A stretch of 64,000 bases of DNA from a phage, in sequence record PZ452582.1; one strand, given 5' to 3'. The notes beneath the pieces were generated by a model that was given only the letters and a program-made list of their open reading frames with translations, was not told the DNA's origin and made no database searches. Positions 1 through 53,980 of this stretch are shown one piece after another; the first letter of the stretch is position 1, and every line of letters begins with the position of its first letter. A program made the translations under genes and the position numbers.

Positions 1-2
1 TG

Positions 3-371
3 TACGCGGATTATCAGGCTAATCCATCTGAAAAGCCAGATTGCCAAATTGGATGGGCTCATGATACCCTGCTTGAAGCAGTAGATGCTGCTCAAAAATT
101 AGGATATAGTTATGTAGATATTGTTCAACCTGGTGGAACAGTTATTACTCTTGAAGAGTTTAATAATATTAAACCAAACTTTTTACTTTTTGCAGGTGAT
201 AATTATTATCCTCGTGGTGGATATGCTGATTTAATCGCGAAAGCCGCTACCGAAGATGAACTCCGTGATATTATCAAAGAAAATGAAAACAAACCGATGT
301 ATGGTTCTAATCGCTTTGATTGGTGGCAAATTGTAAATGCCCACACTCATACTATTGTTGATGAAGGCTGA
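3..371 (+). CDS. hypothetical protein, C-terminal fragment (5' end outside window)
   Basis: Open frame from window edge to TGA at 369-371; stop overlaps next start (TGATAATG); phage-like codon usage. Confidence 0.45.
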   Translation, partial: YADYQANPSEKPDCQIGWAHDTLLEAVDAAQKLGYSYVDIVQPGGTVITLEEFNNIKPNFLLFAGDNYYPRGGYADLIAKAATEDELRDIIKENENKPMYGSNRFDWWQIVNAHTHTIVDEG

Positions 372-373
372 TA

Positions 374-661
374 ATGATTCTTTATGCTAAAGTATCATCC
401 ATTGAAAATGGATATAAATATGATCAAGACGCGGCTAAAGCCTTGATTGATGATTATGGCGTTTTAACATGTTTTGAAGTTGAAAAGGTTTATGTTGACC
501 GTTCATCTTCTCAAGTTAAATTAGTGAAGGAAGACCGTAAATTTAATACAGTAAATTTTGATTTCTTTATTGAAACAGAAAAAGGTCCTCTTGAATATGA
601 TATTTTCAAGAATCCTTTGGGTCTTGAATGCATCGTAAATATGTATTATCATAAATGGTAA
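374..661 (+). CDS. hypothetical protein (95 aa)
   Basis: ATG ORF coupled to upstream stop; no recognisable motifs. Confidence 0.45.
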   Translation: MILYAKVSSIENGYKYDQDAAKALIDDYGVLTCFEVEKVYVDRSSSQVKLVKEDRKFNTVNFDFFIETEKGPLEYDIFKNPLGLECIVNMYYHKW

Positions 662-758
662 ATATGCTTTAAGAATTATTTGTTATTATTAACTCATACC
701 GCACTGATTAATACCCTCTATCATCAAGGGTTCTTGTTTGAGAGCCTTTGTTAATAAT

Positions 759-831
759 TGGGAATTAGCCAAGTTGGTAAGGCATAGCACTTTGACTGCT
801 AGATGCAAAGGTTCGAGTCCTTTATTCCCAG
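759..831 (+). tRNA. tRNA-Gln (anticodon UUG)
   Basis: Cloverleaf: acceptor tgggaat/attccca, anticodon loop cTTTGAc... read as UUG at 792-794, T-loop ttcgagt. Confidence 0.85.
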
Positions 832-832
832 C

Positions 833-919
833 GCGAGAATGGTCAAATTGGTAAAGGCACAGCACTTAAAATGCTGCGGAATGATTTCCTTGTGGGTTCG
901 AGTCCCACTTCTCGCACCA
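833..919 (+). tRNA. tRNA-Leu (anticodon UAA), class II with long variable arm, CCA encoded
   Basis: Acceptor gcgagaa/ttctcgc, anticodon loop cttaaaa, T-loop ttcgagt, 3' CCA. Confidence 0.85.
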
Positions 920-924
920 AATTT

Positions 925-998
<74 letters not shown>

Positions 999-1008
999 AT
1001 TTAATTTA

Positions 1009-1082
1009 CTCCGTGTAGCTCAGTTTGGTAGAGCGCCTGATTTGGGATCAGGAGGTCCAAGGTTCAAATCCTTGTATGGAGA
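1009..1082 (+). tRNA. tRNA-Pro (anticodon UGG)
   Basis: Acceptor ctccgtg/tatggag (G-U pairs), anticodon stem cctga/tcagg loop tttggga, T-loop ttcaaat. Confidence 0.8.
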
Positions 1083-1084
1083 CT

Positions 1085-1174
1085 GGAGGCGTGGCAGAGT
1101 GGTTTAATGCACCGGTCTTGAAAACCGGCAGTCGCTCCGGCGACTCATAGGTTCAAATCCTATCGCCTCCGCCA
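1085..1174 (+). tRNA. tRNA-Ser (anticodon UGA), class II
   Basis: Acceptor ggaggcg/cgcctcc, anticodon loop cttgaaa, long variable arm, T-loop ttcaaat, CCA encoded. Confidence 0.85.
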
Positions 1175-1179
1175 GTTTT

Positions 1180-1255
1180 GCTGATTTAGCTCAGTAGGTA
1201 GAGCAACTCACTTGTAATGAGAAGGTCGGCGGTTCGATTCCGTCAATCAGCGCCA
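1180..1255 (+). tRNA. tRNA-Thr (anticodon UGU)
   Basis: Acceptor gctgatt/aatcagc, anticodon stem actca/tgaga loop cttgtaa, T-loop ttcgatt, CCA encoded. Confidence 0.85.
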
Positions 1256-1256
1256 A

Positions 1257-1331
1257 GGCCCTGTAGCTGGAAGGTTCAAGCAAGCGACTCATAATCGCCA
1301 GATGGTGGTTCAATTCCACCCAGGGCCACCA
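1257..1331 (+). tRNA. tRNA with CAU anticodon (Ile2 by T4 analogy, or Met)
   Basis: Acceptor ggccctg/cagggcc, anticodon loop ctcataa, T-loop ttcaatt; T4 has an AUA-reading tRNA-Ile here (from memory). Confidence 0.75.
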
Positions 1332-1340
1332 AATTAATTT

Positions 1341-1427
1341 GGGGAGTTATCCCGTAGAGGTAGCGGTGTGGACTGTAAATTCATTGTCATTGCGACTCGG
1401 GTGGTTCGACTCCATCACTCCCCACCA
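1341..1427 (+). tRNA. tRNA-Tyr (anticodon GUA), class II
   Basis: Anticodon loop ctgtaaa and variable arm gtcattgcgactc closely match recalled E. coli tRNA-Tyr; acceptor ggggagt/actcccc; weak anticodon stem. Confidence 0.65.
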
Positions 1428-1431
1428 ATTT

Positions 1432-1506
1432 GGATGTGTAGCTCAATGGCAGAGCGATCGCCTGTTAAGCGATTGGTTATAGGTTCGAATCCTATCACGT
1501 CCGCCA
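1432..1506 (+). tRNA. tRNA-Asn (anticodon GUU)
   Basis: Acceptor ggatgtg/cacgtcc, anticodon stem atcgc/gcgat loop ctgttaa, T-loop ttcgaat, CCA encoded. Confidence 0.75.
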
Positions 1507-1620
1507 AATTTGTGACAACTGTCACATTAATATCTACTTGACGCGATTATAGGGGTTGAACTGATCACTCTTCTCTTAATTTCGTGTGAAGACATCTTGA
1601 TTGTTGGAGTAGGTATTAAT

Positions 1621-1696
1621 GTGGCCGTAGTTCAGTTGGTAGAACTCGAGATTGTGATTCTCGTAGTCATGGGTTCGACTCCCATCGGTCACCCCA
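1621..1696 (+). tRNA. tRNA-His (anticodon GUG)
   Basis: Acceptor gtggccg/cggtcac, anticodon stem cgaga/tctcg loop ttgtgat, T-loop ttcgact, CCA encoded. Confidence 0.75.
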
Positions 1697-1700
1697 ATTA

Positions 1701-1776
1701 CGGGGCATAGCTCAGAAGGAAGAGCAAGGACCTTCTAAGTCCTAGGTCGTAGGTTCGATCCCTACTGCCTCGACCA
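1701..1776 (+). tRNA. tRNA-Arg (anticodon UCU)
   Basis: Acceptor cggggca/tgcctcg, anticodon stem aggac/gtcct loop cttctaa, T-loop ttcgatc, CCA encoded. Confidence 0.85.
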
Positions 1777-1794
1777 ATTATAAGTGAGGAAAAT

Positions 1795-2145
1795 ATGAAA
1801 GGTAATGTTTATTTAGTAGTTCATGATTTAACATTTTACTTCAATGAATATGAAAAACATATCTCATTTCGTGAAATTAATTTACTTTATCAACATGCGG
1901 ATTATATTTATATTCAAAACGAATTTGGTCATTGGCAATTTCTCAAAAATCGTTCATTTGGCTTAGATGGTTACGAATATTTTGAACGTAAAGACCTTTT
2001 AGATAAAATTCCGTTATCTACACAATATCAAAATCACAAATCTTTATATAAATGCCGTCCAATTCGAAATGTTGAATCCGCGTATGAAGCAATTGATTTA
2101 TGGCGTGAACGCCGTAAACAGATTGATGCTTTAAAAGAATATTAA
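1795..2145 (+). CDS. hypothetical protein (116 aa)
   Basis: ATG with SD gtgagga 8 nt upstream, directly after tRNA-Arg. Confidence 0.6.
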   Translation: MKGNVYLVVHDLTFYFNEYEKHISFREINLLYQHADYIYIQNEFGHWQFLKNRSFGLDGYEYFERKDLLDKIPLSTQYQNHKSLYKCRPIRNVESAYEAIDLWRERRKQIDALKEY

Positions 2146-2454
2146 GAAACCGGGTCGCTACCGGTAAGTCGTCGGACTGATGTTCCCTGAGTAAGGAATT
2201 GCGTTAATAATCTTTGCGTTTATTGATGCCCTCTTACATCACAGCAGAAACGGCGCACCGAATTATCGATTCGAGGAAATATCTTTGCCGTAAGCCGAGT
2301 AGCGTTTTTGACGGAACGTTCGGATATGGTCGAGATATGGCCTTTTAAAAATATTGAGTAGCGTCAACTGCTTAATAACCGGGTTCGAATCCCGGCGTTT
2401 CGTACAAACACTTGCCTTAGCAGGTGGAACCCCGACAAGGTTGCCGCAAGGCTT
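2146..2454 (+). ncRNA. putative stable RNA(s) with tRNA-like T-arm; candidate counterpart of T4 species 1/2 RNAs
   Basis: About 300 nt GC-rich with no ORF, hairpins (accgggtcgctaccggt), T-arm-like gggttcgaatccc, ends at an intrinsic terminator. Confidence 0.4.
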
Positions 2455-2482
2455 AGCCCCGACCGAAAGGTTGGGGCTTTTT
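2455..2482 (+). terminator. rho-independent terminator
   Basis: agccccgacc-gaaa-ggttggggct stem followed by TTTTT. Confidence 0.7.
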
Positions 2483-2484
2483 GG

Positions 2485-2492
2485 TATAAATA
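2485..2492 (+). promoter_or_regulatory. T4-type late promoter core TATAAATA
   Basis: Exact TATAAATA about 40 nt upstream of the CTS-bearing ORF at 2533. Confidence 0.5.
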
Positions 2493-2532
2493 TAGTAGTA
2501 TATTAAATCCACGAATTAAAACAGGAAATAAG

Positions 2533-2706
2533 ATGAAATCATATACTCAATTTTTAAATGAAGCGGTGTTAAATGAAGCATCTAGCACCGAAATTCAAGC
2601 TGTCGCAAAAGCAGCCATTGCAGCGGGTAAATATTCTTATAAAGATGCTTCTGATGAATCGCGATTCCAGTTCGCACGCGACATGAAAGCGGAAGGATTT
2701 ACGTGA
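2533..2706 (+). CDS. small protein (57 aa) with capsid-targeting-sequence-like N-terminus (candidate internal protein)
   Basis: N-terminus MKSYTQFLNEA resembles T4 internal-protein CTS MKTYQEFIAEA; SD agga; late promoter upstream. Confidence 0.5.
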   Translation: MKSYTQFLNEAVLNEASSTEIQAVAKAAIAAGKYSYKDASDESRFQFARDMKAEGFT

Positions 2707-2718
2707 AATGCAGTTAGT

Positions 2719-3006
2719 ATGGCCTGGAAAAGTTTAGTTGCTACTGGAGCTGCTTTTGCAAAGGCTTCAGGTAAACCTGCTCCTAAGGCTGACCCTAAAG
2801 CAGCACAAGAAAAAAATATTGCTAAAGGAATTATCTCTAGGTATGAAGCAATTCTTAAAGAACTTTTGATAATTAAGACCGAAGGCCAGAAACTTGCGCG
2901 AGCTCATAGTTTCAAAGATAACCCACATGCTCACTCTCTTGAGTATGTTGAAGACATCCAAAAAATTATTAAAGACCGCATTTGGTCTGCTAAACAAATC
3001 AAATAA
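2719..3006 (+). CDS. hypothetical protein (95 aa), Lys/Ala-rich N-terminus
   Basis: ATG ORF ending just before a terminator hairpin. Confidence 0.55.
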   Translation: MAWKSLVATGAAFAKASGKPAPKADPKAAQEKNIAKGIISRYEAILKELLIIKTEGQKLARAHSFKDNPHAHSLEYVEDIQKIIKDRIWSAKQIK

Positions 3007-3013
3007 CATTCTT

Positions 3014-3042
3014 AGCCCCGACCAAAAGGTTGGGGCTTTTTG
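3014..3042 (+). terminator. rho-independent terminator (second copy of the 2455 hairpin)
   Basis: agccccgacc-aaaa-ggttggggct plus TTTTT; near-identical to 2455-2482. Confidence 0.7.
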
Positions 3043-3133
3043 GTATCTAGGCCTTTCCGGGCCTCTCTAGACATCATTTAGTTTCTACCCTTTATAATAT
3101 ATTATCCTATCTTTTAATTGCCCCTCCCTGCCC

Positions 3134-3250
3134 TAGAATTCCCCAAAACTTTTTAAAAATTTTTTCACAAAACAGTTTACATCCTTACCCTTCCATGGTA
3201 CTATACAACTATCAACTACTGATACAGAAAACAACTTGGAGAATGAAATG
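3134..3250 (+). repeat. promoter-leader cassette copy A (PeSL-like), near-identical to 46217-46316
   Basis: Shared tagaattcc...ttttcacaaaac(a/t)gtttaca...ccatggtactatacaactatcaactactgatacag...ttggagaat(g/a)aaatg. Confidence 0.7.
3176..3204 (+). promoter_or_regulatory. early sigma70-type promoter (TTTACA-17-TACTAT, A/T-rich UP region)
   Basis: GTTTAC -35 motif typical of T4 early promoters; 17 bp spacer. Confidence 0.7.
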
Positions 3251-3511
3251 GATAATTACGGCGAACTGTTCAACTTCTTTATGAAATGTGTTTCAGAAGA
3301 TTTTGGTCGTACAGTGAATGATATTAAAGTTATCGGTCCTGATCATCCGATGTTTGAAACTTACGCAGTAATGGGTAATGAAGATGGTCAGTGGTATACT
3401 GTAAAGGTTGTGATTAACATGTTCACTGCTGAAGGTTATGTTAAACTGTCTTCTAAAGTTTACCATGATAACGATGAAATCGCAGAAGAATATTTCAATA
3501 ATATGAAATAA
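3248..3511 (+). CDS. hypothetical protein (87 aa)
   Basis: Track ORF starts at TTG 3236; ATG 3248 has SD GGAG 6 nt upstream. Confidence 0.6.
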   Translation: MDNYGELFNFFMKCVSEDFGRTVNDIKVIGPDHPMFETYAVMGNEDGQWYTVKVVINMFTAEGYVKLSSKVYHDNDEIAEEYFNNMK

Positions 3512-3512
3512 G

Positions 3513-3541
3513 TTTACACAGGCTCATGATTGAGATATTAT
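3513..3541 (+). promoter_or_regulatory. early promoter (TTTACA-17-TATTAT) with 8 bp inverted repeat bracketing the -10
   Basis: GTTTAC motif; aggctcat (3520-3527) and atgagcct (3540-3547) flank the -10 hexamer. Confidence 0.6.
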
Positions 3542-3567
3542 GAGCCTATAACTTTGAGGAGAACATT

Positions 3568-3900
3568 ATGAAACGTAACTTTAGTAAAGCTTTTTGTAAT
3601 AGAAATTATTATCCTGAAGAGCTTTTTGAATCTAAGGACTTTAAAGAGTTTAACGAACGTTCTCAAAACATGCCTGTACAATGGGTGTTAGATTATGCCA
3701 AACGTATCTTTGAAGGTGTACGTTGGTTCAGTCCTGATGATGAAGCCCCATATTTTCAAAGGGCATGGTCTATAGTCAATCAAGCTTATATTGATGCTTT
3801 AGAAAATATTAATATTATGGATGATGATGCTTTGTTAATCATCGATGAGTCTATTAATAGTAGTATCGATAAATTTATTGATGAATTGGACGAAGAATAA
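3568..3900 (+). CDS. hypothetical protein (110 aa)
   Basis: ATG with SD gaggag. Confidence 0.65.
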   Translation: MKRNFSKAFCNRNYYPEELFESKDFKEFNERSQNMPVQWVLDYAKRIFEGVRWFSPDDEAPYFQRAWSIVNQAYIDALENINIMDDDALLIIDESINSSIDKFIDELDEE

Positions 3901-3901
3901 G

Positions 3902-3930
3902 TTTACAAACTCTTGGGAGTAGAGTATAAT
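3902..3930 (+). promoter_or_regulatory. early promoter (TTTACA-17-TATAAT) with inverted repeat gggagta/tactccc around the -10
   Basis: Consensus -10 and GTTTAC -35; inverted repeat 3915-3936. Confidence 0.7.
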
Positions 3931-3975
3931 ACTCCCACGGATTATAAAAACCCTTAATTAACTAAAGGAAATGCT

Positions 3976-4569
3976 ATGAACATGCTGAAGAAAATTGTTG
4001 AGTTTATTCGCACTAAACTTGGTTCTGCTATGGCTAAAAATTTATCTGTTGAAGAACAGTATACTGCTGCGGCAGCAAAACTACTTGATAAGATTAAAGA
4101 TCTAAAAACTGCTTCTGTTAAATCTATTAATGAAGAAAAACGTATTCGTGAACTTATTGTCGAAAAGAATCGACAGGCCGAATCAAAAGAGCGTGAAATT
4201 CGCAAGCTTCTTTCTGAAGGTCAAGATGTAACAATGCATGCTAAACTCGGCTTGCTATATCGTCGAACAGCTGAACAGTTGACTACTAAAGCTGATGGTT
4301 ATGCTGAAATGCGAATTGAAATCGCCAAGAAAGTAGTTGAATTGGATGATGCTCGCCAAGAACTTGCAGTTAAATTGGAATATATCCGTGAAACTCGTGC
4401 AGCAAATGCCCTTGGAATTAGTACTGCTGATGATGTAGTTGAAATTGCAGCGCTAACTAAAGTTGATATTGAAGATACTCTCGCCCGAGTTGAAACCTTT
4501 AATGGTAATATTTCTGGGGTTGAAACTACCTCTGCCGATGTTCAGGAATATATTAATTCTCTGAAATAA
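3976..4569 (+). CDS. coiled-coil protein (197 aa), possibly PspA/IM30-like
   Basis: SD aagga; Lys/Glu-rich heptad-like sequence; PspA resemblance is tentative. Confidence 0.6.
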
Positions 4570-6406: not shown

Positions 6407-7375
<969 letters not shown>

Positions 7376-7860: not shown

Positions 7861-8334
7861 ATGAAAACATATCAAGAATTTATCACTGAAGCAGCTATTA
7901 ATTCTCAAATTATTGCTGAATCTTTTACTGATCTTTTGAAATTTAAAAAAGGTCAAAAAATCACTGCTGTATTGGATGATGGTACAGAAGTTGAGATGGA
8001 TGTACAGGGATATAATTATGCAGTAGATGGAAAACTGTATAATAAATCTCATGCTAAATTTGATTCATTTGACGACTTTGTTAATACAGTTGAAGATGAA
8101 AAAACTCGTAGATCCATTGCAACTGGTGATGCTAAGGTTCTTATGGCACATGGTCATGAACGCATTCGCGCTAAACAGAATAAAATGGGTGAAGATAATT
8201 TTGCATTAGTTGGTTATCAATCTGGTAAACAAACTTATGGCTATCAACGTACTGCTACCATGTATAATAAAAATGGTAAAATTGCCTTTGTGAATAGTAA
8301 GGGTTCTATTCAGTACGTTAAATCGTTCAAATAA
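7861..8334 (+). CDS. internal protein with capsid targeting sequence (IPII/IPIII family)
   Basis: N-terminus MKTYQEFITEA matches T4 internal-protein CTS; sits at the IP locus next to denV. Confidence 0.7.
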   Translation: MKTYQEFITEAAINSQIIAESFTDLLKFKKGQKITAVLDDGTEVEMDVQGYNYAVDGKLYNKSHAKFDSFDDFVNTVEDEKTRRSIATGDAKVLMAHGHERIRAKQNKMGEDNFALVGYQSGKQTYGYQRTATMYNKNGKIAFVNSKGSIQYVKSFK

Positions 8335-13691: not shown

Positions 13692-13699
13692 TATAAATA
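13692..13699 (+). promoter_or_regulatory. T4-type late promoter core TATAAATA
   Basis: Exact TATAAATA 26 nt upstream of ATG 13725. Confidence 0.55.
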
Positions 13700-13724
13700 G
13701 GTTTATCTAACTAAAGGGGTATAT

Positions 13725-13937
13725 ATGCTACAATTAACTGAAAAGCAACTTCGCAATCTTACTGTGCTTCAATTAGATGAAATTCGTAGGGAAGTTGGAA
13801 ATGTTATTTCAGCTTTGCGTCGAGAAGTATCACTCAACCAATCTCCGGCAGACTATACTAGATTGCGAAATTTTGAAAAATACCTTGATAAAGTTAAGGC
13901 CGTGCATCGGCATAAAGTAAATACAGGACAAAAATGA
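13725..13937 (+). CDS. hypothetical protein (70 aa)
   Basis: SD aaagggg; late promoter upstream. Confidence 0.55.
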
Positions 13938-53814: not shown

Positions 53815-53818
53815 TATG
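53767..53818 (+). repeat. direct repeat copy 2
   Basis: Near-identical to 53409-53460. Confidence 0.8.
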
Positions 53819-53980
53819 AAAACATATAAAGAATTTATCAAAGAAGATATGGTCGCTGGAGATTCAGGTGGTAGTCCTGAAAATATCTCTACTGGAACAA
53901 CGTCAGGCGCTGTAGTAAATAAAGGTCCTGAACAGATTCCTAAAAAGAAAAAAGAGGAATCTAAAGAAAAAGAAGAGTAA
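53816..53980 (+). CDS. small Lys/Glu-rich protein (54 aa) with CTS-like N-terminus
   Basis: MKTYKEFIKE matches the T4 internal-protein capsid targeting sequence; stop 3 nt before gene 61 ATG. Confidence 0.45.
   Translation: MKTYKEFIKEDMVAGDSGGSPENISTGTTSGAVVNKGPEQIPKKKKEESKEKEE

Follow-up and report, generated by a model that had tools for sequence, protein, structure and literature searches.

We analysed a 64,000-nucleotide stretch of phage DNA (sequence record PZ452582.1; "the window" below means this whole stretch) with a focus on a 57-codon open reading frame (ORF) that follows the tRNA and stable-RNA region on the + strand. This ORF is almost certainly a truncated fragment of a 157-codon gene. 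Our data are best explained by a late gene with a private GGA-to-TGA change at codon 58, which leaves the 57-codon ORF as its 5' fragment, and whose intact version probably encodes a packaged internal protein. A preliminary description of the window had assigned that role to the 57-codon ORF itself. It combined real features with a largely sound inference and attached them to the wrong object, the 57-aa ORF in place of the 157-aa gene.

A premature stop codon splits one gene into two ORFs

Translation of positions 2533-3006 yielded one frame of 157 codons with one internal stop, a TGA at codon 58 (Table 1). The 95-aa ORF listed downstream (2719-3006, + strand) begins at the internal Met63 of this frame and has no ribosome-binding site of its own. 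A single PHROG family, phrog_2280 (178 positions), spans both the 57-aa and the 95-aa piece. In Escherichia phage AndreasVesalius (BASEL Bas42), 99.8% identical to the window across a 1.6-kb query spanning the locus, the same segment is annotated as one 157-aa coding sequence. The sole mismatch to AndreasVesalius in 621 aligned bases is at position 2704, a G there versus a T here (GGA, Gly58, versus TGA), and codon 58 of phage Aplg8 is GGG. Because pairwise pN/pS over the full-length gene was only 0.05-0.25, the sequence comparison indicates that the 157-codon frame is a real coding gene under purifying selection. The preliminary description had seen a 57-aa ORF beside a 95-aa ORF. We confirmed its coordinates, its start (MKSYTQFLNEA) and its place after the stable RNAs rnaD and rnaC, but it is no stand-alone gene, since a single TGA splits one frame.

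The coding sequence in the window is hence not intact. Of 219 phage records with a match to the 61-mer centred on codon 58, none was identical, the best having one mismatch, and the 57-aa product had no record in a large assembly index (153 billion gene positions). Because no relative record carries the TGA allele, the stop is either private to this genome and very recent, or a base-calling error. It falls between helices 3 and 4 as predicted for the N-terminal domain, within the most conserved block of the family (GKYSYKD...AEGF.GN.V..AWKS). An opal-suppressor tRNA was not found, the UCA anticodon being absent from all 11 phage tRNAs. From the window only a 57-aa product of 6.3 kDa would be made, and after processing to 42-47 aa it would miss helix 4 and the whole C-terminal helical hairpin. 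For this reason the truncated product is unlikely to work, and the function has probably been lost. A 19-nt inverted repeat (arms 2597-2615 and 2749-2767, 84% complementary and 133 nt apart) brackets the premature stop and may be due to chance.

Could the TGA stem from an error in sequencing or assembly, or from a minority variant? The source phage would then have an intact 157-aa gene and the rest of our explanation would stand. The stop is one base change that none of the 219 related records shares, its product is missing from the assembly index, and the flanking 620 nt are identical to those of an intact relative. However, a G-to-T substitution outside any homopolymer is an uncommon type of consensus-assembly error, and accessory genes of such kind are often lost, other database copies being disrupted at an A7 tract. 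We therefore consider an error unlikely. It is hardly credible that a genuine, separately evolved 57-aa gene for a very small internal protein lies here next to an unrelated 95-aa gene. Although promoter, ribosome-binding site, ATG and stop are all there, both ORFs share one frame, and relatives have Gly at the position of the stop and a single 157-aa ORF. Moreover, one family profile runs over both halves with the stop inside its most conserved block, the 95-aa ORF lacks a ribosome-binding site, and the 57-aa product is unrecorded elsewhere. Programmed UGA read-through or recoding, giving a short and a long isoform, appears just as far-fetched. In E. coli a UGA stop is relatively leaky when the next base is A, and small amounts of full-length protein may form, but the stop is private to this genome, not conserved, and a UCA anticodon, the only recoding signal that was looked for, is missing among the phage tRNAs. 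We thus retain a 157-codon gene interrupted by a private nonsense mutation.

The leader of the family resembles a capsid targeting sequence

T-even internal proteins (Ips) are injected ahead of gene expression. They comprise T4 Ip1/IPI, Ip2/IPII and Ip3/IPIII as well as IpIV to Ip7 of T2, T6 and PST; they bear a capsid targeting sequence (CTS) and are processed by gp21. In the CTS of T4 IPIII, targeting depends chiefly on residues 4 and 7 and processing on residues 8 and 10 (Mullaney and Black, via PMC9026906), and gp21 cleaves after Glu in L/I-x-E motifs (PMC9026906, PMC5694885). At the critical positions, the leader in the window has Y4, F7, L8 and E10, then Ala, and the cleavage motif is repeated as LNE-15. 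The pattern [Y/F]xxFLxE was found in all family members, including those of ~35-40% identity: F7, L8 and E10 are constant and position 4 is Y or F (one-residue shifts allowed). Examples are MKTYNEFLNE, MKFKEFLAE, MLKFNEFLAE, MINFSDFLNE and MKSFSSFLNE. The form MK[T/S][Y/F]x[E/Q]F[I/L]xE plus a small residue is common to this leader (MKSYTQFLNE/A) and those of T-even Ips such as Ip7 (MKTFKEFINE/A) and IpII/III (MKTYQEFIAE/A), though this allele differs from the canonical Ip leader at five of ten positions.

We then compared the leader with known ones by several measures. In an ungapped BLOSUM62 comparison against MKTYQEFIAEA it scored 34 and ranked third among 622 Met-starts (P = 2.3e-6 per peptide). 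Ranks 1 and 2 were taken by two other leader-bearing ORFs of the window, and the next best peptide after this leader scored 23. When the first 25 aa were searched against 38,880 PHROGs, the only matches beyond its own family were phrog_3499 ("internal head protein") and a single family whose function is unknown; both matches are anchored at position 1 of the profile. The N-terminus of the homologue P0003 matched five internal-protein families (best E = 0.0014, phrog_3499), and the T4 IPIII leader gave a reciprocal match to phrog_2280 (E = 0.13). In a narrow hidden Markov model (HMM) made of seven expert-named leaders (T4 IpI, IpII/III, IpIV, Ip5, two Ip6 and Ip7), four other family members reached E = 4e-5 to 0.02. 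Those matches above the present allele that we inspected (35454, 36716, 36695 and 63288) were local internal KTYK tetrapeptides, not N-terminal leaders, and were rejected. Given the graded results of the BLOSUM62, PHROG and narrow-HMM comparisons, the family leader appears CTS-like and this allele one of its more diverged versions. The CTS-like N-terminus of the preliminary description, for which a check against a CTS profile had been proposed, has the four critical residues and the rank among Met-starts on its side, but this allele does not score significantly in the named-leader HMM (E = 0.88).

A late promoter core precedes the gene

An exact T4-type late promoter core, TATAAATA, stands about 40 nt before the ORF, just as had been noticed before, and is followed by a ribosome-binding site. 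By itself the octamer is not enriched (7 copies in the window versus 11.1 expected). Its placement is nevertheless non-random, as a ribosome-binding site and start codon follow five of the six + strand copies at a distance of 13-40 nt, and the genes that these copies precede include those for lysozyme e and a Soc-like capsid protein. Like T4 late genes with such a promoter, for example e and soc, the 157-aa gene has the exact octamer 13-40 nt before ribosome-binding site and ATG, as do the e and Soc-like genes of the window. Unlike that of the T4 genes, its promoter is a predicted one, with an octamer that on its own is not statistically enriched in the window.

The element is conserved at orthologous loci. 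In all Tequatrovirus copies examined, TATAAATA is found at -44 to -48 from the ATG, in Aplg8 too, despite an adjacent 4-bp indel. Klebsiella phage KP1 keeps its position, though terminator stem and 5' untranslated region differ, and the Mosigvirus copy has the variant AATAAATA at the promoter. The interval from rnaC to the ATG (2405-2532) yielded no sigma-70-like promoter. Late transcription of the gene is predicted from this upstream octamer and its conservation. The preliminary description had held late expression together with a CTS to be the expected signature of an internal protein. For the classical genes this was not borne out: the 400 nt upstream of each of T4 ipI, ipII and ipIII contain no TATAAATA. 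Because of this difference, a proximal late promoter of its own sets the 157-aa gene apart from the classical ip genes and is not their usual signature.

Other copies of the octamer in the window deserve mention. A tandem pair (6847-6867, + strand), with copies starting at 6847 and 6860, 13 nt apart, precedes the lysozyme e ATG at 6881; the T4 pair is at -34 and -21. At 13692-13934 (+ strand), a 70-aa ORF (phrog_1826, unknown function) has TATAAATA 25 nt upstream and is a candidate for a small late gene, in a region that is early otherwise.

Association with phage particles

The literature provides data for an orthologue of the intact gene. Ultracentrifuge-purified virions of Yersinia phage fD1 (phiD1, HE956711) were analysed using LC-MS/MS with a strict threshold (PMC8309999). 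The 157-aa orthologue g140 (67942-68415) was listed as particle-associated (PPAP), as was IpIV of fD1 (g129), whereas the neighbours g138 and g139 were not (PMC8309999, Table S3). The fD1 orthologue is hence certainly made and co-purifies with particles, which does not prove packaging. A literature search found no second virion proteome covering the 157-aa gene. Virion proteomics had been named as the check for a packaged protein; what it offers is the presence of the intact orthologue in a virion list of low specificity, known from the literature only.

Properties of the predicted protein

The predicted mature form comprises 142-147 aa (about 15.5-16 kDa, pI about 9.6) and is basic and Lys-rich, with 24 Lys and Arg among 142 residues. 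AlphaFold (pLDDT 75) predicts an all-alpha protein, in which a flexible link joins the leader helix (residues 4-11) to a compact domain of four helices (18-71), and a linker rich in Lys, Pro and Ala leads on to a long helical hairpin (88-155).

We compared it with a set of named Ips, consisting of the T4 genes and the Ip genes named in the PST, T6 and T2 records. Likeness to T4 IPI, IPII, IPIII and IpIV is confined to the first 14-16 residues, and no homology, in sequence or in fold, to the mature domains of Ip1, Ip2 or Ip3 was found. Ip1-3 themselves resemble one another only in the leader, and each of them inhibits a distinct GmrSD type IV restriction enzyme (PMC12373910). Like the T-even Ips, the 157-aa protein has a candidate L/I-x-E cleavage motif, is small, basic and non-essential, and occurs in some phages only. 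Unlike them, it has no homology to named Ips beyond the leader, and the copy in the window is truncated. The comparison with T4 ipI that had been suggested on account of its position near the tRNA region did not hold, since ipI sits on the opposite side of the tRNA cluster and has an unrelated mature part.

Distribution of the phrog_2280 family

By tblastn, the 157-aa protein was found in 512 phage records, in 470 of them near full length, and the gene is present in at least three genera. Its position just after the tRNA/stable-RNA region is kept in Tequatrovirus, Mosigvirus (AlbertHofmann) and Jiaodavirus (Klebsiella phage KP1). All listed annotated copies are called "hypothetical" or equivalent. 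In Aplg8 (KT184308) the intact 157-aa ORF (3330-3803) carries no coding-sequence annotation at all, though rnaC, rnaD and the terminator are annotated.

The family is narrow. It forms 13 clusters among 5.8 billion proteins, and a profile search of 1.84 billion representative proteins returned only 14 relatives, all from the same small phage family. Pfam, NCBIfam and PADLOC assigned no family to the 157-aa protein. A profile match against PDB sequences to a designed PPR protein had no passing stretch and was dismissed as spurious.

The gene is of a non-essential type: it is missing in T4, T2, T6 and PST, present in the 512 records, and disrupted in the window as well as in several database copies. 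The homologues P0006 and P0014 (-1) and P0008 (+1) are out of frame at the A7 tract, right after ...AQEK. These frame changes reflect slippage mutations that recur at the tract, or else recurring homopolymer errors in the sequencing of the other assemblies.

A cassette between two terminator repeats

The gene is part of a cassette in the order terminator, late promoter, ribosome-binding site, ORF and second terminator copy, located between rnaC and e.8-like early genes. Both terminators lie within direct repeats spaced 559 bp apart; two copies of the repeat occur in the 64-kb window and none is expected by chance. T4 has one terminator copy, directly followed by the sequence found after copy 2 of the window, and no gene. 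T2, T6 and PST likewise have one repeat copy each and no homologue of the 157-aa gene in the region. This pattern matches the one described where T4-like phages gain and lose small regulatory cassettes by way of repeats (PMC4122927).

In several respects the cassette is like PeSLs (Arbiol 2010, Comeau 2014) or phage morons: a single accessory gene has its own promoter and terminator and is flanked by terminator repeats, and relatives with an empty site keep a single repeat copy, as expected of recombination between flanking repeats. However, PeSLs pair the stem-loop with an early sigma-70-like promoter, whereas repeat copy 1 runs into a late promoter here. Copy 2 is followed by other sequence, and the two repeats are the only ones in the window and are not dispersed. 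Flanking repeats and one-copy empty sites were thus found, an early promoter and many dispersed copies were not.

Genomic setting and neighbouring features

The phage of the window is T4-like (Tequatrovirus), with best matches of 97.4% identity across 25 kb, and no identical genome was found in the phage collection. Its + strand corresponds to the counter-clockwise direction of T4. Along this strand follow a trna.2-like ORF, 11 tRNAs, a 116-aa ORF, rnaD, rnaC, the terminator, the locus of the 57-aa ORF and the e.8-like early genes, which carry sigma-70-like promoters. RnaD and rnaC close the tRNA/stable-RNA transcription unit (2145-2404, + strand). Rfam reported tRNAs only over positions 1-4000 of the window; T4 rnaC and rnaD have no Rfam model there, and we placed them by blastn. 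The tRNA cluster comprises 11 genes versus 8 in T4, with tRNAs for Tyr, Asn and His extra, and lacks the homing endonuclease segB. Its tRNA-Met (CAT) call corresponds to tRNA-Ile (ATA) in the AndreasVesalius annotation, and AndreasVesalius has a homing endonuclease at the place of the window's tRNA-Pro.

Two further ORFs of the window carry leaders of the Ip type. The 157-aa ORF at 7861-8334 (+ strand) has the canonical leader MKTYQEFITE/A, is 100% identical to PST IpIV and belongs to phrog_3155 ("internal virion protein"). It corresponds to fD1 g129 ("head protein", PPAP), starts 10 nt after denV and lacks TATAAATA within 400 nt. The T2 record AP018813 mislabels this protein as "valyl tRNA synthetase modifier". 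The 54-aa ORF at 53816-53980 (+ strand), a member of phrog_1823 (unknown function), begins with the strong CTS-like leader MKTYKEFIKE/D, which the Ip-leader HMM scores at 19.9 bits (E = 1.8e-5); a Gly/Ser-rich stretch and then a Lys/Glu-rich tail follow. This ORF overlaps the stop of the one upstream and likewise lacks TATAAATA within 400 nt; its residues 8-53 match positions 109-154 of the longer phrog_2086. Its likely fD1 counterpart is g024 (also 54 aa), which is not particle-associated.

Table 1. Coordinates of the 157-codon gene, its cassette and the preceding RNA genes in the window
Feature	Position	Strand	Remarks
tRNA cluster, 11 genes	759-1776	+	
rnaD, stable RNA	2145-2259	+	99.1% identity to T4 rnaD (blastn); also annotated in Aplg8
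rnaC, stable RNA	2266-2404	+	98.6% identity to T4 rnaC (blastn); also annotated in Aplg8
Direct repeat copy 1, 36 nt	2452-2487	+	holds the intrinsic terminator; last three bases start the late promoter
Intrinsic terminator, stem-loop and T-run	2455-2478	+	inside repeat copy 1
T4-type late promoter core TATAAATA	2485-2492	+	exact match; ATG 40 nt after the motif
Ribosome-binding site AGGA	2523-2526	+	6 nt before the ATG at 2533
57-aa ORF, MKSYTQFLNEA...	2533-2706	+	N-terminal part of the 157-aa gene; phrog_2280 profile positions 1-51 of 178
Leader, candidate CTS, MKSYTQFLNE/AVLNE/A	2533-2577	+	L-x-E protease motifs LNE-10 and LNE-15
Premature opal stop TGA, codon 58	2704-2706	+	GGA or GGG (Gly58) in relatives
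In-frame remainder, codons 59-157 and stop	2707-3006	+	phrog_2280 profile positions 57-172 of 178; identical to AndreasVesalius
A7 tract inside the gene	2810-2816	+	frameshift point in several database homologues
Direct repeat copy 2	3011-3046	+	35/36 identical to copy 1; terminator stem-loop 3014-3037

Discussion

We propose that the intact 157-aa protein is probably a packaged internal (injected) protein, of a new family at a third locus that is missing from the classical T-even phages. Late in infection, the late transcription apparatus would start a transcript just downstream of position 2492. Y4 and F7 of the leader would target the protein into the scaffolding core of the prohead, with L8-x-E10 and L13-x-E15 as putative cleavage sites, and the prohead protease would trim 10 or 15 residues. 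The mature N-terminus is predicted to read AVLNEASSTEIQAVAK if cut after LNE-10 and ASSTEIQAVAK if cut after LNE-15; an unprocessed protein would be expected to show SYTQFLNEAVLNEASSTEIQAVAK. The basic mature protein would stay with the DNA in the head and be injected into the next host, where by analogy with T4 Ip1-3 it would most likely disarm a first-line defence, for example a GmrSD-type type IV restriction enzyme. An anti-restriction role is our best guess by analogy only, because Ip1-3 each inhibit a GmrSD enzyme, and we put it forward tentatively. The expectation of the preliminary description, that a late promoter and a CTS mark a packaged internal protein, remains sound for the intact 157-aa gene, given its promoter, its leader, the PHROG cross-matches and the fD1 data, but not for a 57-aa gene.

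Several observations weigh against this proposal. The present allele scored 5.2 bits in the narrow Ip-leader HMM, which is not significant, and its PHROG cross-match to phrog_3499 is marginal (E = 0.054). With its position between rnaC and e.8, the gene is at neither of the two classical ip loci (57B-trna.4 and e-denV), although placement at an ip locus is a typical feature of Ips and not a mechanistically defining one. In no record is the gene called an Ip, and in those of RB32 and RB51 it is the hypothetical RB32ORF132c, a name that was not found in the literature searched. Finally, the fD1 list counts 113-137 of 277 gene products as particle-associated, DenV, NudE and thymidine kinase among them, and is of low specificity (PMC8309999).

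With up to 49% of the proteome on that list, enzymes included, the detection in fD1 might reflect contamination. The 157-aa protein would then be a late non-virion protein, and its leader a relic of 5' modules exchanged between cassettes; the HMM result for this allele and the unusual locus fit such a reading. However, members below 40% identity still have [Y/F]xxFLxE while the protein diverges elsewhere, which argues for selection on the leader itself. In addition, none of the four critical CTS positions has been lost, matches between the leader and internal-protein PHROGs run both ways, and a late promoter of its own suits the time at which heads are assembled. A non-virion protein is therefore an improbable alternative. 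Still less probable is that the protein is packaged as a structural core or DNA-condensing protein (like T4 gp67 or gp68, or as a basic counter-ion) and not as an anti-defence effector. Its basic, Lys-rich mature form, the Lys/Pro/Ala linker and the long helical hairpin would suit this role, as the lysines of internal proteins contact DNA (PMC3012670). Yet the gene is dispensable, being absent from T2, T4, T6 and PST and broken in the window and in other records, and all three characterised T4 Ips are specific restriction inhibitors (PMC12373910). We thus favour an injected internal protein encoded by the intact gene.

For annotation, the locus illustrates that two neighbouring "small ORFs" can be one gene with a premature stop, and the phage of the window is probably a natural knock-out. 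If our proposal is true, about 500 sequenced phages carry an unannotated injected effector, therapeutic candidates and phages of the BASEL collection among them. The gene lies outside the two loci in which ip genes are usually sought, and T2, T4 and T6, which lack it, provide a ready-made test bed. The diversity of Ips is thought to shape host range, and targets have been identified only for Ip1-3 of T4. It is conceivable, if speculative, that phrog_2280 represents an unrecognised, widespread injected protein at a third ip locus, expressed from its own late promoter and directed against a defence outside the range of Ip1-3. That defence may be another GmrSD/type IV variant or a different first-line defence, and the recurrent inactivation of the gene, by a nonsense codon here and by frameshifts at the A7 tract in other genomes, would then mean that the protein is costly or sensed in some hosts.

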